Source of the DNA: Balanoglossus misakiensis
Taxonomy: Eukaryota; Animalia; Hemichordata
Direction: 5' to 3'
Assembly (NCBI GenBank): GCA_040954595.2
Contig: CM082582.2
Span: 5,564,303 to 5,628,302, forward strand
DNA length: 64,000 nt
Part shown: positions 13,907 to 62,283 of the stretch, piece by piece
Layout of the letters: each line of letters starts with the position of its first letter
How positions within the stretch are numbered: the stretch's first letter is position 1
Position numbers and translations under genes: made by a program
The notes under the pieces: model-generated
The model's database searches: none
The model's input: only the letters and a program-made list of their open reading frames with translations
Told to the model about the DNA's origin: nothing

Positions 13907-14980
13907 ATGGCACAGAACGGACACACCCCCAATGGCTTGACCAACGGCAGATCCAACGGCACATCCAATGGCTACCACATCATCGAGAACGGAATCAACG
14001 GCCACGAGAACGGCCGAGTCCAGAACGGTTTCCACAACAACAACACCACGCACGTGCTGGTGACGGGCGGGGCCGGCTACCTGGGCTCCACCCTGGTGCC
14101 AATGCTGCTGCAGGAGGGCTACCAAGTGACCGTCTATGACATCTTCAGCTGGGGCATCGCCCCCCTGCTGCCGTTCGTGGGCGACGCCAACCTGCACATC
14201 GTCAGGGGCGACGTGCTGGACGAGGCCCACCTGGCCGAGGTCATGAAGGAGGTGGACGCCGTGGTCCACCTGGCGGCCATCGTCGGGTACCCAGCCTGCG
14301 AGAAGGAGCCAGACCACGCCCGGCAGGTCAACGTGGTGGGCACGGAGAACGTGGTCAAGCACCTGCAGCCGCACCAGAAGCTGGTCTACGCCTCCACGGG
14401 CTCGTGCTACGGGGCGGTGGACGGGGTCTGCACCGAGGAGACGCCCATCAGCCCGCTGACGCTCTACGGCAGCACCAAGGCGCAGGGGGAGCAGCTGACG
14501 CGGGACGTGGGCGGCGTGGGGCTGCGGCTGGCCACCGTCTTCGGCGTGGCGCCGCGCATCCGCCTGGACCTGCTGGTCAACGACCTGACGCACAAGGCGC
14601 TGAACGTGAAGCACTTTGACCTCTACCAGGGCGGCTTCCGACGCACCTTCCTGCACGTGCGGGACGCGGCCCGCAGCTTCGTGCTGGCGCTCAAGCGCTA
14701 CGAGGTGATGGGCGGCCAGGCCTACAACGTGGGCCACGAGAGCATGAACATGACCAAGTCGGAGGTGGCCCAGCAGATCCAGGCCAGCATCGAAGACTGC
14801 AAAATCACCGAGTCCACAAACGGGGAGGACAAGGACAAGCGCGACTACGAGGTCTCCTACGAGAAGATTCGAAAGCTCGGGTTCAAGTCCACGCTGACCG
14901 TCAAAGAGGGCATCATAGAACTGTTGAAAGTCGTGCCTCATATGACTGAAGCAGACGTGAAACGGGCCAAAAACGTTTGA
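13907..14980 (+). CDS. Extended SDR / NAD-dependent epimerase-dehydratase family protein (357 aa, single coding exon)
   Basis: Rossmann motif VLVTGGAGYLG, acidic residue after beta2 (VTVYD, NAD preference), HLAA, YASTGSCYG, catalytic YGSTK (YxxxK) and RLATVFG. A splice acceptor (pyrimidine tract, then TTAG ending at 13888) lies 18 nt before the ATG. AATAAA occurs at 15095 and 15125. The N-terminus is Asn-Gly-rich and low complexity. Confidence 0.93.
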   Translation: MAQNGHTPNGLTNGRSNGTSNGYHIIENGINGHENGRVQNGFHNNNTTHVLVTGGAGYLGSTLVPMLLQEGYQVTVYDIFSWGIAPLLPFVGDANLHIVRGDVLDEAHLAEVMKEVDAVVHLAAIVGYPACEKEPDHARQVNVVGTENVVKHLQPHQKLVYASTGSCYGAVDGVCTEETPISPLTLYGSTKAQGEQLTRDVGGVGLRLATVFGVAPRIRLDLLVNDLTHKALNVKHFDLYQGGFRRTFLHVRDAARSFVLALKRYEVMGGQAYNVGHESMNMTKSEVAQQIQASIEDCKITESTNGEDKDKRDYEVSYEKIRKLGFKSTLTVKEGIIELLKVVPHMTEADVKRAKNV

Positions 14981-17829
14981 GGGGGCCTCGGATCAACCGG
15001 GAGATATTATAATTGTATCGGGTATTAAATATTCAAAACGACAAAATTATGATTACTTGTAGTTGTCAAACCTATGCTTGTTGCTACCCCCCAAAATAAA
15101 CATTGAGCTACGAGTGTGATAGATAATAAAGCATTATTTGTTATTTATAAAGTATTCATCATTTTCTTTTAGCCCTTTTTTTGTCAGGAAAATTTTATCT
15201 TTCACAGAGGAAACCGTTTCTGCATGTGTTGTGCAGTTCAGCATGCATTGCAATGCCACTAAAATTCCATAACGATGTTTTGTGCAACATGGATTAGCAA
15301 ACGATGGTTTAAACTGCATTGAAAATGGCTTTTTCATGCTATTTAAGTATCGCTTAATGTTTCATGACTTTGGGGTGATCTCTAAATCTGGCCACGTTTT
15401 CAACGAAAATCCTCCGATTTTCGAAACCACCACACTGGCCATTGGAATCCAAATCAAACCGCTTTAATGAGCCGATTATCAAAACGCTTCAAGCTCTTTG
15501 TGCAAATGTTCATTGGAATCTGTCATTACAAGACGCACCAAGACCGTCTTGAATTGACCCCCAAGATTCTAACATATCATATTTATATAGGAGAAAAAAC
15601 AGGGTCATTTCTTGAGAAGTATCAACTTCATTTCTGAAATTAGAATATTCTATACAAGACTTCCAGTTTTTTGAGCAACTGTATAAAAGTATTAAGAATT
15701 TAAAACATTTATAATCATGCTCCATGCAGTGATAAGGTAGTACTTTATAATCTTAATGTGTAGTGTACAGTGGTGAATGAGGATTAAGAATTTCTGAGCA
15801 GCAAAAAAAAGTCATCCCGATTTCTGAGATTCGCATCAAGTAGTCTACTCTGGGACGGTTCAACTCTGTCAATGCACTACACCGAATGTGACAACTTTAT
15901 TCAACAGTGAATATCAATGGAGTTGTAGATTGTACAATATTATATATATATGCTCCAACCAAAAATCAAATGTAACAAAGTGTATCAAAATCGACATTTT
16001 TTAACTTTTACAGAGGAAATTTTGATTCATGTTTCTAAATCTTTGCAGTAGAACAAGACCGGCAGACGACAAAGGCCACAAAAACGATCTTCTTTCCAGC
16101 AGCAAACTAGTATATATTGCATGAATGATATATTAGCTTTGTAGATGTAACATACGTATATTTCAGGATTTTCAGCTTTGTAAGGGAAGTGTATATACAT
16201 CCCAATGCAATGGTCAAACGCACATTTTTATTTTGTTCTCTCCAAATAAAACTTATATGCTGGCGTTTTTTGTCATCGCAAGTATTTTTTGTAGATGCCA
16301 ATCAAATGGTAGATATTATTGTGCACATGTATTGTGAATGAAGTGAAACTGTATTATGTAAATGAATTATGAATGGTACCGTAACTGCCAGAGGTTCTAG
16401 ACTATGCAATCTGCATGCGTATCTGAATCTAATTCAGAGTTTTCCAAAGGGGTGGGATGGGATTTTGCTGTAAACCAGAAGCTGGTTCGCTAGTTTTGCT
16501 CAGCTTGTCTGCGTAGATTTTCAACAAAAAAATGAAGGTTTAAGAATCTCTTCTGTTTTTTTATAACTCATGGATATTGCAGAGTCTAGTAACTTTTAAC
16601 AAATTTAAAGACTTTACGATAATGATTGTAATGGAAATTTTCCCCCGAAATTTTGAAGAACAAAAATTGAATGTGCTGTATCTTAATACTAGTGCTGTAT
16701 ATTTAAGTGACATTGAAAAGTGGTTAATCCACATTTCGCTGAATTAAAAAAAATGACAATTATTGAGCAATCGTATAGATTGCCGACTATTAAAGGGTGA
16801 TAATTGATATCTGACTCACTGTGTTTTGTGTAATTCTCTGCCTTTGACTTGAAACTCCAAAAATTTTAGTACCTCCACCAAGCCTATGGAATAGAGACAT
16901 TTTAAGTGACCCCCCCCCCCCCTGGCCAAAAATAATGACGACTCCCTTTGTTGAACTATCCCTGGTACACCTGTACCATTTTAGTTCGAATTGTCCCTGG
17001 GGATAAAATACCATATAGTAGAGCGGATGTTAACGAAATTATGGGATTGATGAAGTTGGCCTACGAAGACTTAAAATGTGCATTCTACAAGACTATTCAA
17101 ATGCAATACGATGTCAGTGGTCTTTAAATCATTCGTTTTATTTTTTTAAAACTGTGCTTACACGAGGACCTGTAAATGTCTCGCCGTACGTTTAATAGCG
17201 GTCTCTTTTCTAACTGTCTTATATTAATGGGAAATCGATTAGGCCTACAGAAAACGAAACGAACTGGCATTGGTGTTAACAATTATCGCGGGGGTCCACA
17301 GGGCTTTATTTCTCCGTTGCTATGCCACTGTTGCTCGTTAATATTTATCGACACAGAATTTACAGTGGCATGATTTATCACCGTTGAAGGTTTCCACGGT
17401 ATCTTTGTTGCCAAAAAAAGTTTATATCATTCGCCGGGAGAAATGTGGCAGGTATTTTCAATACACATATGACACAAAATATACTGGCCACGTCACACAC
17501 AACGTTCCTGACACATGCTACATCGTTAGCATGGCGATACTTCGACAAATCATAAATCGAAATTAATTGAAACAGCTTATTGGCATGAAGACCGAACAAA
17601 TCTTGATGAGATTACCTAGATAGTGCAATATTGTACCTGCCTATGAATTATTGATTATTTTTTCATATTTCCGATATCTGACAGATTTACATAAGTTGAT
17701 CCGGCGTGAGTTGATTAAAATTTGTCGGAAATTTCATTGCATGATCCGAAAATCTCTCTCCCTGGAATGACAGGTGTAATATATTTCTTTGCCCACATAT
17801 TTGATTAATTCGTATAAAGAATTACGTAA

Positions 17830-18230
17830 TCTATCTCATAAATGACAGGAAATGTAAACGACTAATTCGTAAAAAGAACTGCGTGATCGGATAACAGTTT
17901 CAATCGACAAATCGTATCTCATAAATGCAGGAAATATAAACGACCAACAGAAATTTGTGCAGAAGTCACAGTTGCGTTATCCAATGCGGTGCTGTCGTGG
18001 CCACTTACAAAATAATGTTAATTCGTTCCAATTGAGATACGACCACTGAATTAAATCTAACCCATTCCCCATCTTCATAAAGCCAGCAAGCCTGTAAAAG
18101 AAAGGAATTGAGTAATCAGATAACAGTTTCAATCAACAAATTCTATCTCATAAATGACAGGAAATATAAACGACCAACAGAAATTTGCGCAGAAATATGC
18201 GCAGAAGTGACAGGCTGCGTTATCCAATGC
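17830..18230. repeat. Local direct duplication
   Basis: GATAACAGTTT...TATCTCATAAATG...GGAAATATAAACGACCAACAGAAATTTG...TGCGTTATCCAATGC occurs at about 17890-17988 and 18119-18230, with a partial third copy at about 17832. Confidence 0.7.
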
Positions 18231-25728: not shown

Positions 25729-28700
25729 TCATTCCACTAAACCGAGTCTACATTCCGATTTCACCATCTTGCCGGCCAGTTCCACTTTGCGTTTGTCTTC
25801 GATCTCTTCTGGAGTCCAAGGTCTGTAATTCTTCTCCCATTCTTCCTGTGGGAAGAGTCTCTCGAAGTGGTCGCCACGCCCAAGGCCGATCTGGTGGTGG
25901 AAAGAACAGAAGAACGCCAAAATTAATGTGTGCACATGTACAAACTGACAACTGTACCGTCTTTTTTATTTTTGTCAAGATGTGTGAAAATAGCACAGTC
26001 CATTGTGAAGCGCAAGGTGGATATTCATTATGAACATACCTGTCTATGTAGTAGATTCTTGAGTTTATTGGTGAACCTGTCCGGATTGTTGTCGCCAACA
26101 AAGATCCCCTTGTCTGCTCTGACCACCAACGAACCGCCCAGGTGAAGTCGTTCTTGGAGGACGCCGCGTTTGTACGAGGAGTAGACCCCCTGGGGGAAGG
26201 CTGTACATTTGCAGTCACGTGGGTTCATGTCACCTGGTTTGAAGAATTCTGTCACGCTCATTTTAGGAAAGCTGAGAAGAGAAACAAAAATTATGGTGGT
26301 CATTTGTCTGTAGACGTAGACACATGGCAATAGAATTGCTCCTCAAAAACGGTGTACATTGTCTTGTATTTTGAAGGGAAGCGAAAGAAAATTGACCGTT
26401 TGTAAACTTCTGCACCCTGAAACGATCGAGGCCTCTCCTAACACTGTGTCGATATTCTTTGTTATCAGAACTTTCGTTTTATCAGTCAACTGCAATATTC
26501 AGGATCAATAAACTTACCTATGGTGATTATCTTCTATGGTAACAATGAAGACGTTCTCTTGACTCATGAAATAATCATTCTTCAAAACCCATTCCTGGGG
26601 TAGCTCATAATAATATTCCGCTGTTCCGACCATCTTTTCTTCACCCTCTGAAAAAATAGAGCATTTCGATACAAGTTTAGTTCAGATACATGTAGTTTTC
26701 TGTCTGGGAGGGTCGGTCAATATGTAAAGTGAAAAGAAGCCGTGTCTTTCGATCAGATCAATTGTTACTTGGATGTATAAGATCGCACAATATGTGGTCA
26801 AACGTAACAGCTGCGCTGATTGGCGGAAACGATATGTCCGCTTTATTACTTACTTGCTGTGTCGCCTGCTTCTGGTTTGAGAACCATGACGTCACACAGG
26901 TAGCCCTGTCCCATCTGGTATAAAGCGGATGTTGTGCTCACACGTTCTGAAAATAAAATGACGCAATGAAGAGTACACCGTCAAACCGAGAGAAGGAAAC
27001 GTGATACATGGAGAATGAAACTGCGAAAAATGAATCAAGGTTTAACTGAGACGACAGATGTTTGTGGTAAAAAGTCGCCGGCCACTTGACCACGATCGCT
27101 TTCGTAGATTCTAGACAAACCGCTTCAGATGCCATGGGCTTTGTGGCCAATGAAGAAAAATGTAAGGTTCAGTAAATTTTGTCTCCCAGGGTTGGAGGTA
27201 AGAACGTACCAATCATGAACTTGGAAAGCTCTCCAGCGTCGAGCGATAGGAAAATCTTCTTCGGCAGGTCATCGTCATCGTAGCGGGCGCCAAGCATGTT
27301 TGTCAGGGTCTTGACGTTGTATCGGAAGCCGTGGATGAAACCAGAGGCGGCTCTTCGATCACGTGACTGCATAACTGTGCCGATGAAGTAGAGATCGGGA
27401 ACGGTCGACTGCCAGTGTTCGTCGAGGACGACGTATCGACCGTCGGTGTGGGTTTCTAGCAGAGATGGAGATCAATAATTACAATCAATGTGTGTTTCAA
27501 TCAAAGGTTTTATCACATGACGAGAATGGATTGATGGGGAAATGGCGTGTTTAATTTAATGAGTGAAAATTACTAGTAATTTCTGGAAAGTAAAGCGTCT
27601 TTCTCAGCCAAGTATTGCACATTATCCTCTCTGGAAACGATACATATTTTTTATGAATGTCTGATTTTAACGTATCTGTTCTCCACAACAAGTAAACTAT
27701 CAACATGCAATGGTCACGGCGCCACCAATCGGCGATGTGAGACTGGCTTACCTGGCTTACAAGTTTCGTCAAACATGTCAATGTTGATGAACTTCCATCC
27801 TGTCGCCAGAATGACTTTGTCGTAGCCCTTGCTGGTGAAAGTTGCGGTGCCTGGTGGGTCCCAGTGGGGCAATTCCATCTCGAAGGTCTGAGTGATTGTA
27901 CCGTCTTCCTCCCTGACGAACTTCTTGGTGTCGCACTGGCGGAGAGCGTGGAGCGATTTCAGATGGTACATGTCGAGGACGTTGTTGTTGACGGCTCTCA
28001 GATGACCCACGAAGTGAGTGTCCCACGCCAACTTGACGGGTGTGCGCGTGCACATGTGAATTATTGCAGCACTGCCTGCTAAGTAATCTGAACACTGCAA
28101 GTTGAGAGCATAAAATATGTTTTAGTTGAATGATTTTAAAAAATTCTGGTAGGAAATCGTATGCTTCATTAGCATGGTACAGTTTCCGAGGCAAAGTAAC
28201 TGATTTATTAAAGGCCGTTTTTTTTTTATACAAAACTTACCTCAAAGGCGCTGTTTCCTCCTCCAAGAATCAAAACCTTCTTGTTTTCATACTCCTTCAA
28301 ATCCAGACTATGTTCTTGATAGGTGTCCGCCACCTCGATGCCTTCAATATCCGGGACATTGGGCAGGGCTGGACCGGTGCCAACAATCAGAACTTTACAG
28401 GTGAATATTTTCCCGTTCTGGTCGGTGATGGTGAAACGTGACGGGTGTCTTCTGTCCTGGACGGCTTCTCTGTTGACCTTGACTATGTTTGTGTTGAGAC
28501 GCACCTTCAGATCGAACTTCTTGGCAAAGTCGCGTAAATAACTGAAAATGACAGGACCACCCCATGAATTATATTACACCGGTATTCGTCATCATCTGAT
28601 GCAAAACACGGAGAGTGTAAATCTTTGAGAAAATAAGTTGTTGCATTGTGCAATCTGTGGGCCATGGATATTTTGTTACCAACATTATAAATATATTCAA

Positions 28701-29197
28701 CAATATGATTATCATTTTAGATTTCTTGACAAAGGAAAAAAAACTTACTCGACTAAAAGGCCTGCATCCGGGAACAGATCGTCTGAATAATCACAGAAAG
28801 AGATGTCGTCTTCGTCACAGACCAGAGAATTCCAATCATGGCGGAGATTGAATTCTCTCTCCTTGAAGTAGTTGTGTTTCTTGTTGATGGAGATCAGAGT
28901 GCGATGACGCGGATACGTCTGGTAGAAGGAACCAACGCTGTCGTTCTTCTCCAGGACGATGTAATCTTTTCCCGCCTTCTCCATGCAGTAGGCCATCTGG
29001 ACACCGGCGGGGCCCGCCCCGATGACGATGTATTCGTAATCTGAAAACAAAAATGCAGAAAAGTTGAAGAAAACTAAATCGGAGCTATAGTACATGTACC
29101 GCAGCTAGCTTGAACCAAAGTCGACTTGGACGGTTACTGGCATACTTTTTGAGGCGAAAACTATTTGAAAGAAACCCATCTTACCTGTTTTCTCCAT
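25729..29197 (-). CDS. FOXRED2-like FAD/NAD(P)H-dependent oxidoreductase, copy A (603 aa, 9 coding exons), no signal peptide
   Basis: Exons 29197-29185, 29040-28749, 28541-28241, 28094-27752, 27455-27210, 26946-26854, 26647-26518, 26271-26040, 25890-25729; all GT-AG, 1812 nt in total. Motifs: GAGPAG (FAD), YPRHRTLISINK and FNLRHDWNSL (FOXRED2-family signature), GGGNSAFE (second dinucleotide site), [23 protein letters not shown]. Confidence 0.9.
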
Positions 29198-29410
29198 ATT
29201 TCGCTTCTTCTATGGCAGATGTCAGAAGACAGCAAATAATCTGTGAAGAAAAATATGTGAATAACTTCAAATTCGATTCGAGTTGGTGGCAATATCAAGA
29301 CAGTCGTGCGTGAGATTTTTTGGTACAGTTCTGTTCTAGTGGCACAGAAAGCCTCGCTCGTCTGTCTTTGGCTCCAAGCGCATAACTGCATATGTCGGAC
29401 TGGTACTCAC

Positions 29411-29499
29411 CCGTCGATGCTGAACAATATGAACGTGTTGCTGAGTACAGACGGTCACAATAAATGCACCAGATTGACCAAACGAACCCATTATTTATA
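29411..29499 (-). promoter_or_regulatory. TATA box and non-coding exon 1 of FOXRED2-like copy A
   Basis: TATAAATA on the minus strand at 29499-29492 and donor G|GTGAGT at 29410. The exon 2 acceptor CAG is at 29243-29241. Confidence 0.55.
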
Positions 29500-31814
29500 A
29501 CCAAAGCCAAAAAGTCACATTTACATAATTTGTGTTTTTTTGCAAACAGAACTTCGTGGAGATAATCCGTCGTCAGGTAACTTGACGGACGATTAACAAC
29601 TGCCAATAAACAAGGATTTCTTCTGATAGCGTCAATCACACCCCCTTCTAAAGCATATTTGTCTTAGAAAGTCACATTTTGGTACATCCCCCGACATCTA
29701 CCAAAAGTTGCATCTGCATTAATGTTTCTGCTGATGGTTTTAGTCAGGCCTGATATGATCTGGCCATGACCGGTCTGGGAATGAATAAAAGAATGATAAT
29801 TGGCGGAATGCACGGATACAAATTTATTTTTTTGTCTGTTGATATATCAATCATACGCCGGCAACTTGCCCGTGTACACAGACAACGGAGAAGTAGGAGG
29901 GTGGAGTACCGAGAGTGTACTTCTCGGCCGGGGAATGGAGGCATGACCGGGACAATATAAAAGCCCGGTTCTCTTGTGCGGAGGGACCGTGATCAAAGCT
30001 TCGCGGGAGGTTTTGACACCTTTTCTTGGCGTGTTGTGGCACTCAGCCGCACCTGGCCAGCTTCCTGTGTCTTCGATAAACGTGCATGTACACGCGTAGG
30101 GCTTCCTTGATGACGAAGCCTCAAAGGGCGACGTTTCTTGTCCACGTGTTGCGGGGAACGTATACAATAGCTTCCACAACACTTCTTACAGTGAGTTTCA
30201 TCGAAATATGCCGATGTAATAATCAAAAGTCTGATATAAGTTTTAAAAAACTGCAGAGTAGTTGTACGTAGTGATCAGAAGTCGAAATACTGGTAGTTTG
30301 ATAACAAGGTCATAAGGTTTGTGGTTGCATAAGCCGGCAAACTCCACGTGTAGTTGGCAGGTATTCTCTGTCGGTCACGGACGAGGTGCAAAAAAGATGG
30401 GTGGAGTGTTGATAGTGACAAGGACGAGGTGCAAATAGAAGTGTTGATGGTGCCTGGGAAATACATGTATCAAAGCACGATCTTCGTGTGTTGATCAACG
30501 CTTCGCGTGAGGTTTTGTCACCTTCTCTTGGCGTGTTGTGGCACCTGATCCACTTCCTGTGTCTTGAAGAACGTGTGTAGGGCTTCCTTGACGAAGCCTA
30601 GTCCACGCACGTGTTGCGCGGAACACAGAAATCTCTATTCTACAACTATGAGGAAAAAATATATATACTATAATGTACTGTGCTAGTATCCAGAGACGAA
30701 ACGTAAAAATAAATTTAGCAACATAAGAAACATGCATCGCTACGCTATCTTTAAAATTTGAAACTTTAGTAAATATCCCCCTCTTCTCCCTGATAAGAAG
30801 TTCATCGATAATTGCAGATGTAAAATACAACCCCTGAGATGTGTATTTTCCATACAAAAAGTGAGTTTTACATTTAATAGGTGCATTCTCATGGCATATG
30901 CGCATTCTCATAGAATATTCACGTATTGGTCACACGCATGACGCCATTTTCTGTAGGAATGGACGCGCCGTGAAGAATGTGAATGAAGTTTAATTTCACC
31001 GTAGCTCCTGGACTAGCCCACTAGTCGCTTGGTGTATGGTTTCGTGTGTGTGTATTTCATGTCACTTTTGTGTCTCAGAAACTAATAAGTCGTTCAATTT
31101 TAATTATTTTATCTTTCACTGCGGTTCAAAGGTTTGCTTTGGCTGGGCTTACTTATCGTCATCACACCAGTCTTCGCGATCACACATTCTGAACACGCTC
31201 ACTCCAGTCATGCTTTCGGCCTGTATTAGCAAATATTTCTCAAATGCGCTTTATAATATTCCGACATATTTTCAATAGACTTTGGATCATTCTATGCAGC
31301 TTCGGAATATCCCATGTGATTATAATACAACCAATAGTAATATATTATGCCAGACCTTAACATTTTATTTGTAATTAATAAGGCCCAAACAGTCCGATAT
31401 AAGTTATTGCATGTGCAGTGATCATAAGGCGACTCACGTTGGGTATTTTTCAGTGTTACACAAAATTTAGAACACTGAATAATGGAGTCAGAAAGGAGAA
31501 ACAATGATTTGCAAAACGAAATATCTTTTTTTTTTCAAAATTTCTATTTACAGACTATAGTTCCGTTGACTTTCTCTCAGAAGACCACCGAAGACAATTA
31601 TTTTAAATGTCAAAGTTGAGGCACAACACATACGTCACTTGACGCCTCTGCTAATCCGCCCAGGGTCTCGTCGTCACACTTCTCTGAATGGTGTTGACAA
31701 AACTTCTCCGACGCGTATGCTGATTGGTTGTACAGGGCCGAAATAAACATTCTATGTGCAGCTCCGCCTATCAGCGGATTTGTAACTTATGAAACCACGA
31801 AGGTGTGAACTCCG

Positions 31815-31971
31815 CCCAATCGGGTTCGGACAAGCTCTAACCTCTATATAAAGCTCGACAATTTTTTCATTTTCACTCATCTCTCTTGAGACGCTGACTT
31901 CGTGCACGTCAGAGGAACTCCCATTTCCGTGTCGCTGAATCTTTCGTTACCGAAGTATTTTTGGAACGTTG
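31815..31971 (+). promoter_or_regulatory. CCAAT/TATA promoter and non-coding exon 1 of FOXRED2-like copy B
   Basis: CCAAT at about 31816, TATATAAA at 31845, an Inr-like TCACTC about 28 nt downstream, donor G|GTAAGT at 31972 and the next acceptor ending at 32130. Confidence 0.6.
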
Positions 31972-32162
31972 GTAAGTATTCCCCATATCTTAGCCTGTCG
32001 TTTGCTTGTGGCCTATGTGCATGAAGCAACTACCTTTGGTGTGTGAGAATTGTACTCGTTGAAATTCCGTACTTTATTCTACCCGAGCTAGCACTAAACA
32101 AAATTATTTGCATTCTATTTTATTTCTCAGGTTTTCCGGTGAATTATAAACATCTCCTGAAA

Positions 32163-45200: not shown

Positions 45201-45694
45201 GCTTTTCTCGGAGAAATGTTTTTTTTGTTACCTGATTGCTTTGTGACCGATTTTACGCAGGGCCTTCCACTTCGGGGTGAAACCTCCAAAAGCAATGTCT
45301 TGCCCGCCTTCAGTGAACAGGTCAACTTCCGATTTAAAAAGAATAATGTGTAGGGTGAGAAATTGTCAGCCTGAGGGTTACGCGCGAAGTTTTGCCTTGT
45401 CTTTTCATTGGAAACTACAGATCTTCCTTGAAAAGCATAGTCAAATAAGAAACCATTTTGTTGAGAGTTCTCAGGTGATGTAGTACACGGTCAATAACGC
45501 ATTAGCTGACTCATACCGAAGCATACTAGTAAAGACTGCAATGAAAGTCGTTCAGGCTCAATCTGTTGTTAATCTTTCCAAGTCTTCTAAAGATTTCAGA
45601 CGACCAAATTGTAGTATCCCGAAAGATGTTGCCACGTGCAAATCACTCAACGGAAAACAAATGCTTCTCACGAAAAGTGATGTGTAGAGCTGCC

Positions 45695-45756
<62 letters not shown>

Positions 45757-46702
45757 CCATCACCATCATCATCATCATCACCCCTGCTGAGGTGAAACTT
45801 ACTGGAAAATATCCAGGGTCTCCCTGCAAAGTCGTTCTGTTTCTTAACCAGCGCTTCTCGTACAACTTCGATGCTGCTGAGCACGACAAGGCGCTTCTTC
45901 CCGAGTTTCATGGAGCATACGTCGCCATATTTTTTAGGCAGCCCTGAGATCTGCCCTACGGGGTCTCTGGCAAAAGCTGAAAAAGAACACATTGCTTGAC
46001 TTGGCTTGGCTTGTCGAGTATTCGGCGGCCACACTACGACCAGTGTTTGCCGGCCATGTTTTGTTTGTCAACGCATGCGCGGGGACACATTCGGCATGGG
46101 GACGAATTCGGCATAACACCTGTTCCGGGTCGACACTGTGGTGAAAACAAACTACACAACTGCCCGTGCAGTTCAACGACACGTTTTAGCGATTAGGTCT
46201 ACCATTCAAATTTATATCTTTCCCACTCACCAGGCTGAATGCAATTGGTGAGGCTTCCAGTATATTACCACACCCTTTTAAATTCAGACAAATGTGATAT
46301 CACCATTTATAGATAGAATACTTTGCTCTAATATTAGAGTAGCTTTCAGACCGAATCTCTACAAGTTAGATACTGCAAAGACTGGACAATTTTAGATAAA
46401 ATGTTGAACTGCATGTAACTCAATGACTGAACACATGCACTCATTATCTCATACCCCGGCCATAAAACTTGCAACGAGTCCGAGGTCGGTGAGCATGAAC
46501 TTCTAGAACGCCCACAGTTCCAAGAACGGGCGGCCACCAACTTACCAACAATGCTACCAAGGATTGGCAACCCTCTCGGTCCTGGCGGAAATCCAGGCGG
46601 CACACGAGTGTTCCGATACGCCAATACCACTATCAGTATCAACAAAACATAGGTCGGACTGGTGAGGACACTCAGAAGTATTCCAAAAAGTTCGGAAATC
46701 AT
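42277..46702 (-). CDS. Cytochrome P450, clan 2 (CYP17/CYP2-like), copy A (505 aa, 9 coding exons)
   Basis: Exons 46702-46546, 45976-45803, 45325-45232, 45034-44873, 44562-44354, 44087-43962, 43456-43217, 42973-42875, 42533-42277; 1518 nt in total. TM anchor plus [12 protein letters not shown]-helix WKALRK, I-helix AGVDTT, K-helix EVMR, FRPERF and heme motif [10 protein letters not shown]. Confidence 0.93.
45694..45781. repeat. (CAT)n microsatellite in intron 2 of CYP copy A
   Basis: Read directly; it lies past the splice donor at 45802 on the minus strand. Confidence 0.97.
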
Positions 46703-48526
46703 TCTGTTGACTAGATAAGAATATGTAAACTGTGTCGGTTATTTTGGACAAAAACAGGTGATATCATATTGGGCTGTTTGTCCAAACCGGTCGATTCATG
46801 GACACGCACTACCCTCACAGTCTTATCGGGGGGAAAATCAGAATAGTAAACGTACTAAGCACCTGTTGGGGTCAAAGGTGCTTCGGTGTCAAGTTCTACT
46901 TGTTAATTGGTCCCTGCGTGAACGCCATATCTTAGGCCAAAGGTGATTGGTTACATAATTTGAATGGACGATAGGTCATGCATCGTTTCAACCACGAATC
47001 CCCACGATCGATTTGCGAAAGCATCATCGTGTTTCAATGTAATTTCGCGTTGAGCTCCAGTTTGTCCAGCGCCTATGCTGCCCTGTACAGTTATGTACAT
47101 AGTGTCGGCCCATAGCATTGGTGCTGGGCGAACTGGAGCGCGCAGACGACTGTAAAATTCAGCAACGTTCTCCAAATGCCGAAAAAGGTCGGTGACCTTT
47201 CCGTCGTCGACCTTTTTATGCTACGGATTACCGAAGTGATGGTACTACCATGGAGGTTCTATTTCCTCCATGGTACTACTAACCATTACCATTACCTTGT
47301 ACTACTGAGAATCTCTCTTCAGAAACGTATTTTATATATTACTAAAATAAGCTATTATAACATATAGTAAAGCAGGCGGTGGTGTCGATATAGGCTCGGC
47401 ACATTTCTGAGGCCATCACCTAGTGGTTAGAAGTGGCATACATAATTTTTAATCACTTTACAATTAATAAAAAACTGAAATAGCGTCTATACAAGCGCCT
47501 GTGCACAGCATAACCTAAAACGAAGGAAACCGAAGGAAACCGAAGGACACTGATTTTTCCATATTTTAGTGCGAAGGACACGGTTTTCTGTATGCTAGAG
47601 GCCGAAGGACTGGTTTAGCTTCGAATTAAACGCCGAAGGACGGGTGTAGCTCCGTAATTTTGGCCGAAGGAAAGCGAAGGACGCTGATTTATCCGTATTT
47701 TAGTGCGAAGGACGTGGTTTTCTCTATGCTGGGGGCCGAAGGACTGGTTTAGTTCGGTAATTAAAGCTTAAGGACGGGTGTAGCTCCGTAATTTTGGCCG
47801 AAGGAAACCGAAGGACACTGATTTTTCCATATTTTAGTGCGAAGGACACGGTTTTCTGTATGCTAGAGGCCGAAGGACTGGTTTAGCTTCGAATTAAACG
47901 CCGAAGGACGGGTGTAGCTCCGTAATTTTGGCCGAAGGAAAGCGAAGGACGCTGATTTATCCGTATTTTAGTGCGAAGGACGTGGGTTTCTCTATGCTGG
48001 GGGCCGAAGGACTGGTTTAGTTCGGTAATTAAAGCTTAAGGACGGGTGTAGCTCCGTAATTTTGGCCGAAGGAAACCGAAGGACACTGATTTTTCCATAT
48101 TTTAGTGCGAAGGACACGGTTTTCTGTATGCTAGAGGCCGAAGGACTGGTTTAGCTTCGAATTAAACGCCGAAGGACGGGTGTAGCTCCGTAATTTTGGC
48201 CGAAGGAAAGCGAAGGACGCTGATTTATCCGTATTTTAGTGCGAAGGACGTGGGTTTCTCTATGCTGGGGGCCGAAGGACTGGTTTAGTTCGGTAATTAA
48301 AGCTTAAGGACGGGTGTAGCTCCGTAATTTTGGCCGAAGGAAACCGAAGGACACTGATTTTTCCATATTTTAGTGCGAAGGACACGGTTTTCTCTATGCT
48401 GGAGGCCAAGGGATTGGTTTAGCTTCGAATTAAACGCCGAAGGACGGATGTAGCTCCGTAATTTAGGCCGAAGGAAAGTGAAGGACGCTCATATCTCCAT
48501 ATTTTAGGGCGAAGGGAAGCCAGTAA

Positions 48527-49309
48527 GGTGCGGAATTGCGTTTTATCGTTTTTAGAAAGTTTAGCTACAAGTGTAGTAAGCTAAATTAGCTGTAGCTAAA
48601 TAGTTCTAAACTATCTAAGTTTTAAGGATAATTATCACTACGATAATTATCGCTTTCTAAATATCGTTCTAAATTTATAAATTAGCCACAGTTTAGAAAG
48701 CCCCCCCCCCCCCCGACTAAAATTTTCTGCCGACGATATAAGTGCTGTATTTCCATTCCAATATTTGCGGAATTTTCATGTATGATTTCAATTGGTGCAT
48801 TTCAATTTCAATATTTGCGGACGGGAGAATGTTGGGAATCGTTTATTGCCCAAATCAAGCCTTATCTCAAAACTCCTCTCAGTTTATTGAGATATGGGCT
48901 TCGTTTATATGACACCATTGTTCTGTGCAACGACTGAAGTCTCAGGTTAATCAATGTCTTAACACCATTGTTCTACCATTATGAGGTGTTGTAAAATGTC
49001 AGAGTTAGAACTTCGACTATATATACTGTTAAAATAAAACAAAGATCACATTTGACTTCCCACCGAAGTACTGGCCATCCCGTCTCTCTCTTCATTCCAA
49101 GCCTACTTCCAAAGTGTACGCCGTACATTTGTAAACGCCCAAGTAGTCCAACTTTCTAAACTGCTGCTAGTTTAGAAAGTTTAGAACGATATTTAGAAAG
49201 TGATAATTATCTTGAAAAAAGCCGTGTTTATCATTATTAGCTAAATTAGCTTCCTTAGACAATACATGTAGTTTAGAAATGCCCCTTCAATAAGACACAA
49301 TTCCGCACC
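48527..49309. mobile_element. PIF/Harbinger (Tourist-like) MITE nested in the foldback element
   Basis: TIRs GGTGCGGAATTGCGTTTTAT and ATAAGACACAATTCCGCACC, flanked by TAA on both sides. The foldback subrepeat resumes after it at about 49316. Confidence 0.75.
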
Positions 49310-49432
49310 TAACTCAGGAAAGCGAAGGACAGTGATTCTCCATATTTTAGGGAGAAGGACATTAGTATCCCTCTCTCTGTATCTCGGAACTAGGATATCA
49401 ATAGTGTGATCTTGTGTTGAGATCGTTTTTTG

Positions 49433-49618
49433 TCAATTGTTTTTCATTTCCAGTTCATGGAACGTAATGTCGGCTATTCCCGGTGAAGCATTTGAGCCCA
49501 CGGTACAACTGCATGTTTGCTTGTAGAATTTGTTGTTTAATTCAAAAGTATTGTTACGTAGAATTAGTGATAGCATTTCTATGAGGTATGTTTGTTTAGA
49601 TTTGTTTCGTGTAAACAT
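49433..49618 (-). mobile_element. Penelope-like reverse transcriptase fragment in the foldback spacer
   Basis: LSLILRNNTFELNNKFYKQTCSCTVGSNASPGIADI resembles the PLE RT motif L..NxFxFNxxFYxQxxGxAMGSxxSPxxAN; degenerate. Confidence 0.6.
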
Positions 49619-52600
49619 GACACTCTACTTAAGATCTCGACATTGATATCAGTAACTCTGGTCAGACGTGTACTAGCTGACGCCAAGTCTCTGATAATCG
49701 TGAGAGAATCGTGTCCTTCGCCCTAAAATATGGAAATATGACTGTCCTTCCTTTTCCTTCGCCCTAAATTACGGAGCTACACTTGTCCTTCGGCCTCTAG
49801 CATACAGAAAACCTTTTCCTTCGCACTAAAATATGGAAAAAACAGTGTCCTTCGGTTTCCTTCGGCGTTTAATTCGAAGCTAAACCAGTCCTTCGGCCCC
49901 CAGCAAACAGAAAACCTTTTCCTTCGCACTAAAATATGGAAAAAACAGTGTCCTTCGGTTTCCTTCGGCCAAAATTACGGAGCTACACCCGTCCTTTGGC
50001 TTTAATTACTGAGCTAAACCTGTCCTTCGGCCTCTAGCATACAGAAAACCGTGTCCTTCGCACTAAAATATGGAAAAATCAGTGTCCTTCGCTTTCCTTC
50101 GGCCAAAATTACGGAGCTACACCCGTCCTTTGGCTTTAATTACTGAGCTAAACCTGTCCTTCGGCCTCTAGCATACAGAAAACCGTGTCCTTCGCACTAA
50201 AATATGGAAAAATCAGTGTCCTTCGCTTTCCTTCGGCCAAAATTACGGAGCTACACCCGTCCTTCGGCTTTAATTACCGAACTAAACCTGTCCTTCGGCC
50301 ACCAGCATAATTAATTACCGAACTAAACCTGTCCTTCGGCCACCAGCATAGAGAAAACCCTTTCCTTCGCACTTAAATATGGATAAATCAGCGTCCTTCG
50401 GTTTCCTTCGGCGTTTAATTCGAAGCTAAACCAGTCCTTCGGCCACCAGCACAGAGAAAACCATTTCATTCGCACTAAAATATGGAAAAAACAGTGTCCT
50501 TCAGTTTCCTTCGGTTTCCTTCGGTTTCCTTCGTTTTAGTCTCACCCCCTGTGCACTGACCGTCACTCTGCAATCTAATCACGCGATTCCACATTCATTA
50601 CAGGCGAGGTTCATATATGTGAGTGACAGTGTGGATACTTACCGAAAAAAGGTCTCAATGCAGCTCTAAAGATACCAGACTGTTGGCCCTCGCCCCAGAT
50701 CGTGCACCTGCGTTCCCGTATACAGAAAACGCGTAGCTCTTTTATATACGTGTATACAACTGTGAGTCACTCTCATATGTTTGCACTGTGACACGCCATG
50801 GCTATGACGTCAGCTGAATACACATCACGAACATGCAAATCGAAATAGTCGAAGTATGTTCTCTGCGTTATTGAATAAGCAAGTCATAAAAAAACATTCC
50901 GCATAATAAATACCACTGCAGTCAGAACGTAAGTGGGGTAATTAAACAGCAGGGGATCATGCAATGCAAACACTCGAACTGGCCAGTAACGTTTGAATTG
51001 CTCATTTGCATACAGTTTTTCAACTTTTTTCACAACGAAAGTTAAGCAACTTGCAACCCATTTCTGACAATGATTTCACCCCAGGCACATTACTGGTACT
51101 ATGAGTGTACTACATGTGATTTTTCATGAAGTTTTATCGAGAAGAATTTATTTACTTCCACTGACAAAATTGTGATCACGAAATTCAAAGTGACCTTGAA
51201 GTTAAAAAATAAAAAAAAATATCAGCCATACCCACACAAAAATTAACCCCCTCAGGTTTTAGAAACATTATTAAACTCCTCTATTCATAATTTTGACATG
51301 AATATATCCATGCCGAGAGTCAAGGACCACAATTTACAGTGCCATAGGTCAGTCCTGAGAAGTCAGTCAGCGTGAATAGTGAATAGACTCCGTATGTAAT
51401 ATGCTAATGAGAGTTAACGACGCGTTGAAAAGGAAGCCATTACGTCATGGGTTAACATGCGTTGACCTACTTCAATGCATACACATATGGCAAACACGGC
51501 TGTACTCGTCGATGGCGAAGGCAATTTTTACACCGTCATTACTCCACAACGGAGCGGCTCACAACATTATAATTTCACGGTAACTTAGTTCAATATCTTC
51601 CTAACCTACCCAATTTTTTTCAAGACAAGAAATCTTTGCCGAGAGTCAAGGACCACAATTTTAACCAACATACCGAAACTGTCTATCTCGGGAACGCGTC
51701 GTTAAAACTTCACGAAAAATCATCCTATCATTGACTATAGTGTTTCATACACGTCTTAGAAAAATGGATGCACTACGATCACTTGTAGTACCGAAAATCT
51801 CCGTTTGAAAATTTTTCGAACTGGCCGTAACTGCCACTCAGTGACGTTCACATTCAAATAGATCTCTTTGATCTCACCGTCGTAATTAGTCTGCCTCCGT
51901 TCTGACTGCTGTATCCACGCAATGCACATCAGAGGCCCTCAATCTGATTAAAATCAGATGTAGGGAACGGTGACGTGTTTTTTTATGCTGTCGCCTACAT
52001 CTGATTTTAATCAGATTGCAGGGGCCCTGTGCCTAGGTAACGATATTTTTGTCCGATAAACCTTCCAATCAAAATTTTTAAGTAGGATGTGGATTTTAGT
52101 TTAATTTATTTAGCCACTGCTGTCCCAATGACGTCAAGGACAATATCGTCCCTGAATCTTGGCCAGACTAGTACGTCCATGCTTTATTAAAGCAAGAACC
52201 ACCGCCGAGGGCAGTATAGATATATGACTCGGTCTGGTTCCCTGCTAGTCTGGTTCCCTGCCCCAATCCCACCACTGGGAAGGGTCGGTGATGGCATAAT
52301 GAGACAATTACCGTGTGATGATAACCCATGCCCAACATGACTGCCTCAAACGTTCGCACACGGTGAAGCTGGAGATCCCGACCTGCAACCGGCGCGTGTT
52401 TGTCTTCAGTGTTCGTTTTTGGATTTCAACAATGTTGTGATCTTTCATAGAATGAAGTTGAACTTCGGTAGCAACTATTATATTGGTGGTTTCTCTATTC
52501 TTTTTTTCGTTGCGTGTTCCCACCTCGTCGACCATCCGTCGAACGCAACTAGATACTGGCATGTCTTGACGTTGTCTTGACGATTCCTTTCGTCCAACTG

Positions 52601-54023
52601 TAACAATGGGCACGGTCACCTCCAATTTACATGTGTCCATAAGTGGCAAAAGGGCGTATCTGAGTGTTCCAAACTGAAGGACACATGGTGGCGCTCTTTT
52701 TTCGTGTGTGCCACCCACTGAAAATCTGTGATTGACTATTGCCACGGTAATTGTAGCTAAATTTCCTTAGGTGACCGTATACCTTTAAAGATGTAAGGTC
52801 ACCGGGGTCACGGTCACTCGAGGTCACCATCCACTAGGGGAGTGACCTTGCCCGGTTGAACTTGTACACATTTAGCCACAGAAGGTGTAGTTGAGATCTA
52901 GCCAATCGCATGTTTTCAAACTGCGCAACGACTTGGTCATTTGAACCCATTTTCTAAAATAGATCATTGTACTCGGCCTGCGCACTGCGACGTACATGTA
53001 CATTATTGAATGGTTTCTTTCAGACCCGGAAAGTTCGTTACACCCTGTCCCCATTCTCCGAAGTGGCTTTTTATTCGGGGTTCTATCGACCTCTGCCAGA
53101 ACACGGTCACCCCTGGTAACAACCTGCAAATATGCAAATGTCCTCATCCCCCCCCCTCCCCCGGCACAATGTCAATGCACTCGGTCGGATCGGCTTTTGC
53201 CACAAACGTCCGCAGAAAACGGTTTTATTCGGTAATTCGTAAGCAATGAATCAAATTATCATCCGATCTTTGACATACATTTATGACTTTTGTGGTGTTC
53301 GGTCCATACAAGGGGTTACAGTGGACTACTGCGATGTTTATATATAATTTGATTTTCCATTGAATTCATCCATTCAGTCCCTCCTTGGTTTGGTTTGGTT
53401 TGGTTTGGAATCGTATTTCGAGTCCGACATTGGTTTAACATTTACCATGATATAATTGACGACACTTGATTATATTATTGTATTTCTGGTTTCTTTAACT
53501 TTACGGTTGTAAATACGTAATCTTCTCAGCATAGGCCATGCATGCACAATCGACAGTGATATTGTTTAAAAGTGGTATTCCTTGAGTTCCGAACTTGAAT
53601 GCGTCTGACAACAATAACAATGATTAATATACATATACCTGCCTTCTTGACAAGCAGAAAGACACAGCGCGTTGGTACACTACAGGGAGGAGAACCAGAA
53701 AAATGTATTTCATAAGCAAAACTTTCCTAAATAATAACATAGCCAATTTGTGGTGGCCTTGTAACATCTACGGGCATTGAGCATAATTTTTTACTAAATT
53801 GACTCTGTACATGCTCATAAAGTGACCTTGTTTACTTTTTGTATTCTTATCATAATTCTTTTGTTTTTATGTCCACTGTTCGAATCTTGCATAAATTAAC
53901 TCGACTGAAGGGGATAGGTGGCGGTCTCCAGCCAGTCAGACACTGCATCTACACGAATGATAGCATAGTGCGCAGAAACCAATGATTCAGTTACACACAA
54001 TTAACATATTCTATATTAAGGTT

Positions 54024-55541
54024 CAATTGTCCACACGGGGTCAGACAGGGTTGCATACTCTCCCCATTTCTTTTCTCTTTTTTTCTGAACGATTTACATA
54101 AAGAATTTACTGAGAATACTTGGGTGAGTGGTTGTTCTGTGGGCTTGGTTCAAATTTTCTATCTGTTATTTGCAGATGACATGGTTTTGATTGCTGAAAC
54201 GAAAATCAAATTGCAGAGATTACTTAACGAGCTAGACTGTTATTGTGTAAAATATAAGCTCACTGTGAATCTTGAAAAAACAAATATTGTTGTTTTTAGA
54301 AGGGGTGGACGCTTACGTAACAATGAAAAATGGTTTTTCCGGGGCCAGCCTGTCAAAGTGGTTACTTATTTCAAGTATTTGGGTATTGTTTTTTCATGCA
54401 GTGGTATATGGTCTAAGGCACAAAAAGTGTTAGCGGATCAAGCTGCTAAAGCTTTATATTCTGTTACCTCCCGACTCAAAGCTTTGGGAGATGTTCCAAT
54501 CAAAACATGTTTAAAGATTTTTGATATAAAAATAGCACCCATTTTGAATTACTGCTCAGAGGCGTGGGGGTACATACAAGCGCCTGATATTGAAAGAATT
54601 CATTTAAAGTTTTGTAAGTTTCTCTTACACCAACATGGTCCAGTTGTCAATATTGCAGTAAGAGGGGAGTTGGGAAGATTTAGCATGAGAACGCTAAGAC
54701 TTCCAAAAATGAAAAAGTTCTGGTTACGTTTAACAAACGCTGATACTAAGAGATATATTTTTCATGCGTACCAAGAGCAATGTAAACTGGCTGAAAGAAA
54801 TTGTGAATGTTGGGCAAAAGCTGTGAGATCTCTCCTGTTCTCATATGGGTTTGCGGAGGCATGGTATAATCAGGGAGTGGGTAACGAGACAAAATTCCTT
54901 TCGGAATTTAGACAGCGTTGTACAGACATAGAACTGCAAGACTGGAACGTGGAAATTGGTACTTACAACAGGCTGCAATCATATAGACTTTTTAAATCTA
55001 CTCTATTGATAGAACCATACCTCCTCACCACCCTGAAGCCTATTTTTAGAGCTACCTTAACTTCTTTTCGATTATCTAACCATCCACTTCATATTGAACA
55101 AGGTAGACGAAATAACACCCCACGTGAAGACAGGTTGTGTATTTGTAACGATGGGTACATAGAAAATGAATACCACTTTTTATTACAATGTAAGTTATAC
55201 GATACCATCAGGGTAAAATACTTACCTGCTCAATTTCTTACCAACCCTTCTATTGATAAATTTATTCAAATTATGTCAACACAAAATCCGAATATCTTAA
55301 GAAAGCTAAGCCTTTACTTATTTTATGCCTTTAACAAAAGGAAGGAGTTGGTGAACTGACTTCCGGGAAAGTGCTGGTTCTTGTTTTCAATGTAAAAGAA
55401 ACCCCCTGCAAATCTTAACAATCTCAAGGTCACTGTGTTCTGTAACATTTAATTTTTTCCTGAAATGTATTTAAAATATTCCAGTACATTGGGCTGGAGG
55501 CCTGTAGTGCAAGTGGAATAAAATTATTATTCATATGGATG
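54024..55541 (+). mobile_element. 5'-truncated non-LTR retrotransposon (LINE ORF2 C-terminal part)
   Basis: Open frame to 55359 with GVRQGCILSPFLF, LFADD, FKYLG and a C-terminal Cys/His motif RLCIC...ENEYHFLLQC. AATAAA and a short TTA tail at about 55517. TSD TATATTAAGGTT at 54012-54023 and 55542-55553. Confidence 0.9.
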
Positions 55542-56413: not shown

Positions 56414-60731
<4,318 letters not shown>

Positions 60732-61575
60732 CGGAACTAGAGAATGAGATGGCCATTATACAGCAAATTACTTTTTGAGTTGATCAGAAATTAACCATCC
60801 ATTGATCAGTACTTGACTACAAACTACAATTGTAAACTTTGTTAATTGTGTGTCATGCCCTATATCATTTGGTAAACGTGAAAGTTGTGACGAAAAACAA
60901 ATCTATTTCTTTTGCAAAATTAACCCGAAAGAATAATACACGTATAGATATATTTTGGTCGTAATGTTTGTTAGTAACGAGTGAACCTACATGTTTTGAT
61001 CTGTGCGACACCGTCAAACCGATCTGATTTGGAGATTTTAGCGTGTGGGGGGGGGGGGTCGTATGCTTTTGTCTACATGACCAATCAATATGCGCGCATC
61101 ACCTTTGACAATGAAGGTTAATGTGCGATATTAGCAAGACCGCCGCCATTGTTTAGAATGTGGAAACCCCATTACCTCATACGACTCAGTACGCAAAGTA
61201 TTTTGTCTGTTATTTACAAATCTTCAGTTTATGAATCAATCCTTAACCACTGTTTTGTCGTTTCTTGTTCTGTTTAAGCTATCTAGATGGGTGTGGTGGA
61301 ATTCAGAAACACGTGGATTGTTATAAGATCTTCAATAAATGTGGATCTTTTATTACAACACGGCAATTCCTCTACATGGTCGAGATTTGTGTAAAGAGAC
61401 TGCACGAACTCAACTTCAAGACAAGTTTGCATGGAGAGATCAGAAATTCTGTGCACAATTATGCGTTTGAATAACTTGTGAATACCGTGTACATGTGTAC
61501 GTACATCCATCACTGGTTATTGAAACAAAAATAGCGACTTTGATAACAAAAATGGTGTGTATGTTGGCGCGGCAT

Positions 61576-62283
61576 TTATTTGGTGATAATCGCGTTGCCA
61601 TTGCTTTCCCGCAGATCCATGGAGTACTGGCACAAGAACACTCGGAAGACTAAGAGATTAAGGTAACAAATTTCACCACTAGACTGAAACCCTTTCCGTC
61701 GGTACAGGCCGCGTGCAGGGACCATCCACCGCCCGGTGTCCAGGAACAGTTCCGCGTAGCCGTTTCGGGCCGAGAATTCGACCACTGTATCTGTTAGTTT
61801 ACTTGCGATTCCCAGCTGTCTGTAGCCTTTAGCGACACTCATGGTCAGAAGCTCCGCCCTCTCGCGGTCGCGGCCGTCTTCCCTCACGCAGACCGTACCG
61901 ACCACTTTCCCGCCATACTCCGCCACCCACATGTGGTTTTTTGGCTTGTCCATGTAGCGCGTCCGGATGTCGCGCAGGTCGCCACTTAGTCGCTGCGATA
62001 CGTACCTGCGCAACAAGAACAGGCTTAGAAGATAAGGCACCACCAGCAAACTCGCCACTGCAGTGAACAATGTCCAGACCGGCGACTGAAAAACGCAGGA
62101 GATACACACGGCGGCAATGGTGACTAGCCAATACGACACATTTTGTGCATTATCTTTGTACACGAACCGCACGTATTCCAACATCCCAGCTCGGAAGATT
62201 TGCTTGGCTCTCTGCTCGTCCGTGCCGCGGAAGCTTCGAATCACAATATCACCCGCTGAAGTTGAAAATTCCCGGTAACTCAT
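61576..62283 (-). CDS. Camello/NAT8-like GNAT N-acetyltransferase 3 (235 aa, single coding exon)
   Basis: Motifs DLRDIRTRY, WVAEYGGKVVGTV, MSVAKGYRQLGIA and LYRRKGF. The start is placed at MSYREF (ACCATG, 15 nt after a CACAG acceptor), consistent with the paralog N-termini. Confidence 0.88.
   Translation of the reverse strand: MSYREFSTSAGDIVIRSFRGTDEQRAKQIFRAGMLEYVRFVYKDNAQNVSYWLVTIAAVCISCVFQSPVWTLFTAVASLLVVPYLLSLFLLRRYVSQRLSGDLRDIRTRYMDKPKNHMWVAEYGGKVVGTVCVREDGRDRERAELLTMSVAKGYRQLGIASKLTDTVVEFSARNGYAELFLDTGRWMVPARGLYRRKGFQSSGEICYLNLLVFRVFLCQYSMDLRESNGNAIITK

Follow-up and report, generated by a model that had tools for sequence, protein, structure and literature searches.

A probable cassette of paired flavoenzymes beside cytochrome P450 and NAT8-like acetyltransferase genes in the acorn worm Balanoglossus misakiensis

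Do enzyme genes of unrelated families that lie side by side in an animal genome serve one pathway, or were they inherited separately? We asked this of a 64,000-nucleotide stretch of the acorn worm Balanoglossus misakiensis (GenBank assembly GCA_040954595.2, contig CM082582.2, positions 5,564,303 to 5,628,302, forward strand; this whole stretch is called the window). A first-pass annotation had proposed that it holds a metabolic cluster of one short-chain dehydrogenase/reductase (SDR), two FOXRED2-like flavoenzymes (A and B), three NAT8-like acetyltransferases (NAT1-3) and two cytochromes P450 (P450A and P450B). Gene models were built exon by exon from the sequence; all were open from start to stop, without internal stop codons and with GT-AG introns. 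Catalytic motifs were intact in all eight models and Pfam assigned them to four families. Models, motifs and Pfam thus agreed that eight intact enzyme genes follow one another within about 48 kb, and at least three contiguous non-homologous enzyme families are present, as in animal clusters of the octocoral type. Pfam and Rfam scans detected nothing but transposon remains between the genes. At E 0.01 Pfam gave no match in any of 95 other stop-to-stop frames of at least 72 amino acids (genes made up of short exons only would escape), and Rfam gave none in the window. Pfam domains and stop-to-stop frames likewise revealed no scaffold enzyme within the 64 kb. The best named matches of the window proteins came from Ptychodera flava (83-89%), Glandiceps talaboti and Saccoglossus kowalevskii, while NCBIfam returned nothing above its curated cut-off for the seven proteins given.

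These genes did not arise by eight separate events: NAT1 and NAT2 are a recent tandem copy, A and B probably form one cassette, and P450A, P450B and NAT3 are older paralogues. The locus reduces to three parts. We give about an even chance to a reading in which these parts were inherited separately: a bystander SDR, two P450-NAT8 pairs, and a mobile A/B cassette that oxidises a small aromatic compound in two steps. The cassette is the strongest signal at the locus, and neither it nor its halogenation lead had appeared in the first-pass annotation.

Type A (29197..25729, minus strand; 603 amino acids, 9 coding exons) and type B (32163..35117, plus strand; 614 amino acids, 8 coding exons) lie head to head around a divergent promoter region (29198..32162) with 2,965 bp between the start codons. 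TATA-like boxes at 29499 (minus) and 31845 (plus), each followed by the donor of a 5' untranslated exon, were recognised by consensus matches alone; an inverted repeat occupies 29990-30599, between the two promoters. The two proteins are 59% identical, and with a dN/dS of 0.13 at saturated dS they appear to be under strong purifying selection. Identity to P. flava genes was 86-89% for type A and 85-89% for type B. In a tree of 37 proteins, in which type A was entered as a model six C-terminal residues short, the A and B clades each received 100/100 support and each contained Ptychodera, Glandiceps and Saccoglossus members; the A/B split is therefore older than the divergence of these three enteropneust genera and their families.

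Counted from the protein clusters that were looked up, P. flava has at least 22 such genes, 10 of type A and 12 of type B, on six chromosomes. Eight of the 10 A genes have a B gene within three RefSeq accession numbers, and same-type neighbours within that distance were never found (label-shuffle p 0.006). For six pairs, on two chromosomes, in a tree with the same shortened type A model, the sub-tree of the A genes and that of their B partners showed identical groups. Glandiceps has one A/B pair with accession numbers two apart, the Saccoglossus pair lies on one scaffold with consecutive UniParc ids, and paralogue names in Schizocardium californicum reach Fxrd2-20. Accession adjacency and the matching partner trees indicate that the pair was copied as a unit, between chromosomes too, so that A/B likely represents a cassette moving as one unit through acorn-worm genomes. 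The trees gave no clear sign of horizontal transfer into acorn worms: they are unrooted, and A/B are placed among long-form relatives, a third clade from enteropneusts and a bacterial clade nested with them. The third enteropneust clade (P0138, P0139, P0152) is about 43-46% identical to A and B and lies on other chromosomes. A plasmid search returned two unannotated full-length matches.

What might A and B do? A fold model was made from a type A relative that is 88% identical (predicted local distance difference test score 88). Its best match among monooxygenases was a Stenotrophomonas flavin-containing monooxygenase (FMO; PDB 4a9w, Z 30.6, root-mean-square deviation 2.6 over 319 residues), with N-hydroxylases next (Z 24-28). 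Both A and B carry the two Rossmann motifs of group B flavoprotein monooxygenases, GxGxxG for flavin adenine dinucleotide (FAD) at residues 12-13 and GxGxxA for NADP at 195-198. No signal peptide was found in either; the first Rossmann motif begins at residue 12-13, and the highest 19-residue hydropathy is 1.15. On these models A and B are predicted to be cytosolic group B flavin monooxygenases. The WxWxI motif is absent from both and PF04820 from the domains of their relatives, so they are not canonical two-component halogenases. Lys248, in an insertion of the NADP domain, was invariant in 57 of 57 aligned sequences and by its region is a candidate counterpart of AetF Lys258. The Lys motif was present in 85 of 99 bacterial open reading frames of the family, and presumably in vertebrate FOXRED2 too. 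Neither the sequence matches listed nor the 50 best fold matches included AetF. When the C-terminal domain of bacterial members was folded by itself (score 91), Foldseek gave no match at E 0.001, and the best Z was 4.7. In the single-component halogenases AetF and Bmp5 the catalytic Lys lies within the NADP-domain insertion (PMC10306068; here and below, papers given by PMC number are cited from the part of each text that was available), and the list of halogenase motifs for these enzymes was taken from PMC13519999. Overall, transfer of oxygen to a small aromatic compound falls a little short of an even chance. Bromination of such a compound is a strong alternative that we hold less likely; oxygen transfer is the safer guess, and reduction or other roles make up the remainder.

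The annotation had also linked the locus to specialised metabolism, and the bacterial relatives of the flavoenzymes bear this out, since they lie in biosynthetic clusters. The best 78 loci were taken from a scan over 10 of 64 parts of a genome collection, with genes called by our own script and neighbour families named from one or two representatives each. P450-family genes were found in 50 of the 78 loci, AMP-binding enzymes in 48, flavin mononucleotide (FMN) dehydrogenases in 46, Na+/H+ antiporters in 42 and aromatic amino-acid lyases in 19. Two paralogues, 58-74% identical, occurred in 21 loci and one copy within 10 kb in 57; an AetD-like oxidase was present in four and a canonical halogenase in three. 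Taken with the fold and motifs, these contexts suggest that the family oxidises derivatives of aromatic amino acids in specialised metabolism. About 45 actinomycete loci, together with L032, L036, L037 and L048, have an operon of an AMP-ligase, one or two flavoenzymes, an FMN dehydrogenase and an atypical P450. The same loci carry a Na+/H+ antiporter and a two-component system, and often an aromatic amino-acid lyase. To our knowledge no product of this operon has been described. Like the acorn-worm locus, it combines two paralogues of about 60% identity with a P450; unlike it, it is bacterial, its flavoenzymes form a separate clade and its two paralogues are not orthologues of A/B. A tryptophan halogenase stands between two family members, 74% identical, in an acidobacterial cluster (L005:6301-11566) that also has a large adenylation-domain gene.

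A second bacterial context is the neighbourhood of AetD, a homologue of which was present in 49 of 301 cyanobacterial genomes. Within 1.5 kb flanks of 31 AetD-like loci, a PF04820-type halogenase adjoined the AetD-like gene in 10 (five confirmed by Pfam) and the flavoenzyme family in six, or in four of 29 when the two seed loci were left out. In these loci (L081-L111) the cyanobacterial AetD-like genes often adjoin a large kinase gene, and their partners are a PF04820 halogenase, the flavoenzyme family, an alpha/beta hydrolase or other enzymes. The substrates of AetD and SktA are brominated tryptophan from partner halogenases, and in the skt cluster the AetD homologue is accompanied by a halogenase and, separately, by a monooxygenase (PMC11869266). 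SktC was considered as the identity of the flavoenzyme family and set aside, as the start of its gene, judged by eye, reads as a classical FMO (PMC11869266).

The SDR stands apart from the other seven genes. It is encoded at 13907..14980 (plus strand; 357 amino acids, one coding exon, PF01370 E 1e-38). The TGGxGYxG motif, the catalytic Ser, YxxxK and a full-length match identify it as an extended SDR of the Cj1427-like nucleotide-sugar dehydrogenase type. Its orthologue in P. flava matched PDB 6vo6, the Campylobacter GDP-heptose dehydrogenase Cj1427 and its best solved relative, at E 3e-74, with the next SDR at 7e-26. Among the 120 matches listed, identity was 83% to P. flava and 59-75% elsewhere in invertebrates, the relatives listed (59-83%) coming from enteropneusts, echinoderms, molluscs, tunicates and cnidarians. 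The promoter, a 5' exon with its donor at 1205 and a long CpG-depleted intron were tentatively placed at 1..13889 (plus strand) from the donor motif and the ratio of observed to expected CpG, which was 1.07 at 1-2000, 0.49 at 2001-13880 and 0.91-1.05 in blocks beyond 16.5 kb. Depletion of this kind over a gene body is typical of methylated, broadly expressed invertebrate genes. The ratio steps from about 0.5 to about 1.0 at 16000-17000, at the 3' end of the SDR, a likely boundary of a methylation domain. G+C at third codon positions was 0.91 in the SDR coding exon and 0.48-0.65 in the other seven genes; the N-terminal extension of the protein is Asn/Gly-rich, and 10.7 kb separate the gene from the next. 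In the cell atlas of Schizocardium (PMC13554239), about 42% of cells expressed a gene with the same Campylobacter name, probably the SDR orthologue; its fold changes did not exceed 0.3, and Vat1l lies two ids away from it. As a nucleotide-sugar dehydrogenase conserved among invertebrates and set in CpG-depleted DNA, the SDR is probably a bystander in the locus. These results do not support its proposed part as a tailoring enzyme: it belongs to a single conserved type resembling 6vo6, and its probable orthologue is broadly expressed in Schizocardium.

The P450 and acetyltransferase genes occur in the order NAT1 (37868..38569, plus), NAT2 (41136..41822, plus), P450A (46702..42277, minus), P450B (56414..60731, plus) and NAT3 (62283..61576, minus), and thus form two tail-to-tail P450-NAT pairs. 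The gaps are 454 bp between NAT2 and P450A and 844 bp between P450B and NAT3, and in the second pair the poly(A) signals of P450B (61334, plus) and NAT3 (61354, minus) lie 20 bp apart. P450A (505 amino acids, 9 exons, with an atypical AAG acceptor at exon 3) and P450B (514 amino acids, 9 exons) have the N-terminal anchor, AGxDTT, ExxR, PERF and heme Cys of microsomal clan-2 (CYP17/CYP1-like) enzymes. The best PDB match of P450A exon 7 was CYP17A1 (E 4e-21). The two are 43% identical with the same intron phases, and a tree in which they are recent sisters was rejected: Saccoglossus P450s branch between them (approximately unbiased test, p 0.009). The close linkage of non-homologous P450 and NAT genes, which the annotation had pointed out, is thus seen twice at the locus, and since P450A and P450B are not sisters, either it goes back to an old inverted duplication of which both copies have kept it, or it formed twice.

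The three acetyltransferases have a GNAT domain and an internal hydrophobic segment, which by sequence places them with NAT8/NAT8L. NAT1 (one coding exon, PF00583) and NAT2, its recent tandem copy, are 74% identical in protein and 87% in nucleotide sequence (dN/dS 0.65); the block 35736-36686 upstream of NAT1 is duplicated at 39988-41026, and a 1.07-kb insertion at 36686-37756 is confined to the NAT1 copy. NAT3 (PF00583 E 3e-17) is 45-47% identical to NAT1 and NAT2, and its nearest Atlas clusters are NAT8/NAT8L at 0.98. A NAT3 search gave one match among 402 candidates (Glandiceps, 44%), and a metagenome scan two bacterial GNAT loci.

Is the whole linkage conserved? In P. flava, linkage was read by chromosome and accession number, with P450 relatives taken as representatives of 50% clusters, so that there may be orthologues closer than these. 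The 42.4 Mb chromosome holds the SDR orthologue, three P450A-clade genes (58-61% identical to P450A) and one distant B gene (78%), with accession numbers hundreds apart. Two other chromosomes, of 48.2 and 40.1 Mb, carry the closest A/B orthologues (85-89%). The annotation had named microsynteny in relatives as a check, and in P. flava the eight genes were thus not found to be linked as a whole. In Glandiceps, the SDR and the sole and best NAT match share a chromosome. Most simply, SDR, NAT and P450 genes were already resident on one chromosome, and the cassette moved in among them within this lineage. Of the proposed eight-gene cluster, gene content, the link to specialised metabolism and the P450-NAT linkage stand, whereas SDR tailoring and full conserved linkage do not.

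Family expression was followed in the Schizocardium marker table (PMC13554239), which was available to cluster 13 of 56 and gave 60 of 62 Fxrd2 places. Enrichment of the Fxrd2, Cp17a-13 and Cp1a5-1 rows was in endoderm clusters 0, 7 and 9. Fxrd2-5 and Fxrd2-7 were co-enriched in cluster 7, with log fold changes of 1.73 and 1.08, and Fxrd2-17, Fxrd2-18, Cp17a-13 and Cp1a5-1 were enriched in cluster 9. One Fxrd2 paralogue is flanked by the ids of Atrap and Foxj3. The table up to cluster 13 contains no NAT8-like row. The families are thus expressed in the gut, which is compatible with biosynthesis as well as with detoxification.

A mechanism for the three-part reading can be sketched. A and B would each bind FAD and NADPH and reduce their own flavin, which with O2 would give a C4a-hydroperoxyflavin. 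Its oxygen would pass to a phenol or indole derived from tyrosine or tryptophan, or would oxidise bromide so that the aromatic compound is brominated. A and B would act in sequence in the cytosol, under a shared divergent promoter, and the endoderm of the gut is their probable site. In this lineage the cassette probably came to lie next to P450 and NAT genes that were already in place. Hydroxylation by the P450s and N-acetylation by the NAT8-like enzymes would then modify either the products of the cassette or unrelated dietary compounds. That they act on the cassette's products, which would put the seven non-SDR genes in one pathway, we hold possible rather than probable. A scaffold synthase may be unneeded if the substrate is an aromatic compound derived from an amino acid.

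Several points weigh against this reading. A-B adjacency in the relatives was judged by accession number, a proxy for coordinates, and four of the 12 B genes and two of the 10 A genes of P. flava have no partner within three numbers. Bacillithiol disulfide reductase YpdA matched the flavoenzyme fold at Z 30.8, level with the monooxygenases, and no family member with a known activity was found. The 78 bacterial loci are mostly from related actinomycetes, so their counts are not independent. The Schizocardium Fxrd2 paralogues are not assignable to type A or B and give evidence for the family only. Finally, the sharing of one P. flava chromosome by the SDR, P450A relatives and a B gene, and of one Glandiceps chromosome by SDR and NAT, leaves some room for an older linkage.

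The locus could instead be a haloaromatic biosynthetic cluster, in which A and B brominate one after the other, hydroxylation or epoxidation of the bromophenol or bromoindole by the P450s follows, and an acetyl group is added by the NAT8-like enzymes to the product or to its conjugate with cysteine. A and B would then be single-component brominases of an unrecognised halogenase family, and the newly assembled cluster a host source of bromophenols, haloindoles and bromohydroquinones; both proposals we consider unlikely. Enteropneusts are rich in bromophenols, haloindoles and bromoquinones (PMC6315191), and tetrabromohydroquinone is tied to the luminescence of P. flava (PMC4208949). Yet in this known producer the closest orthologues of A/B and the relatives of P450A lie on different chromosomes. 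The family's presence beside AetD-like oxidases, where PF04820 halogenases also occur, suggests such a role, though the skt arrangement, with both enzyme kinds beside an AetD homologue, makes that slot undecisive. The invariant Lys lies in the region of the AetF/Bmp5 catalytic residue, and Na+/H+ antiporters are known in clusters for chlorinated products (PMC3158105, PMC4249514), but three of the 78 bacterial loci hold a canonical halogenase besides the flavoenzyme. Gut detoxification is equally improbable in our estimate: flavin monooxygenases and P450s would carry out phase I on electrophiles from the sediment or made by the animal, and the NAT8-like enzymes would finish mercapturic acids. 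Mammalian NAT8 acetylates cysteine S-conjugates, NAT1 and NAT2 evolve fast, and the Schizocardium flavoenzyme and P450 rows are enriched in endoderm, all of which agree with this. However, strict A+B pairing over three families, through repeated duplication, is more readily explained by a fixed two-step reaction, and glutathione S-transferase, UDP-glucuronosyltransferase and sulfotransferase genes are all absent from the window.

A chance neighbourhood, with a mobile A/B cassette that came to lie in a gene-poor, repeat-rich stretch by expanded P450 and NAT families without shared function, we rate as rather doubtful, above either of these two. Expansion of the families was what the annotation had named as a ground for giving up the cluster, and for A/B it was found in part, in the P. 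flava gene count and the Schizocardium names. The spread over six P. flava chromosomes, the Schizocardium paralogue between Atrap and Foxj3, the transposon remains within the span and the location of the closest orthologues on different chromosomes all argue for chance. Against it, the seven non-SDR redox or acyl-transfer genes lie within 36.5 kb of uniform CpG content, no more than 2,750 bp separate B from NAT1, and chance is silent on the cassette itself. Least probable of the alternatives is that A and B are reductases like FOXRED2/ERFAD of the endoplasmic reticulum (ER) lumen, or the two subunits of a heterodimer. Both are linked by their NCBI names and by Atlas clusters at 0.98 to FOXRED2, described as an NADPH-dependent reductase in ER-associated degradation (PMC7563561); the YpdA match agrees with a reductase, and head-to-head co-inheritance would suit subunits. 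However, the lack of a signal peptide speaks against a luminal enzyme, and neither protein has lost a cofactor motif or the invariant Lys, while the single copy in most bacterial loci argues against obligate partners.

Returning to the three-part reading, we compared the locus with known systems. In the octocoral cluster for the briarane precursor cembrene B, non-homologous oxidative enzymes, P450s and an SDR lie side by side (PMC12685057). The acorn-worm locus is likewise from an animal and has P450s, an SDR and other oxidative enzymes adjacent, but the window contains no terpene cyclase or other scaffold enzyme and its SDR is of the nucleotide-sugar type. With no scaffold enzyme seen and whole linkage not conserved, it is at most a candidate for this class. 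AetF and Bmp5 resemble A/B in their group B architecture with FAD and NADP Rossmann folds, in lacking WxWxI, in having a conserved Lys within the NADP-domain insertion and in the context of relatives beside AetD-like oxidases; Bmp5 works with the P450 Bmp7. A/B differ in that their closest solved folds are the Stenotrophomonas FMO, YpdA and N-hydroxylases, and in a C-terminal domain of their own. On the models they are candidates for AetF/Bmp5-type halogenases. NCBI naming and Atlas features, with no vertebrate sequence compared, place A/B in one family with vertebrate FOXRED2 (ERFAD), from which they differ in having no signal for the ER lumen, in expansion to at least 20 copies and in A/B pairing. 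The chemistry of the locus is predicted to work like a group B flavin monooxygenase step, then a P450 step, then acetyl transfer. We found no published report of the A/B pair or of a halogenase role for it, in a search outside which most subscription journals lie; the main texts of PMC11175523 and PMC4729200 do not mention bromo, halogen or P450.

Between the two P450 genes lie a foldback-like element (47517..50527), with two inverted arms of 134-bp satellite units and a 1.2-kb core, and a fragment of a long interspersed nuclear element (LINE) reverse transcriptase (53986..55356, plus strand; PF00078 E 2e-17). Within the foldback core there is a further, short inverted repeat (48642-48700 / 49152-49211), and the LINE fragment has 457 open codons with the start of the domain missing. 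Elsewhere, there is a 355-bp palindrome at 8922-9276 and a 94-bp direct repeat at 17872-18194.

It is stated to be an open question whether the halogenated aromatics of acorn worms are made by the animals themselves, and which enzymes would be responsible (PMC6315191). Because enteropneusts are rich in such compounds of unknown origin, the A/B cassette is a direct candidate to test, and a cheap one: two enzymes predicted to be soluble and without a signal peptide. If halogenation were true, an animal flavin halogenase would be named, and a family common in uncharacterised bacterial clusters would gain a function. Without halogenation, a two-enzyme unit kept over three enteropneust families would still be an unusual operon-like linkage in an animal, and the cassette may serve as a model for the assembly of animal metabolic clusters.

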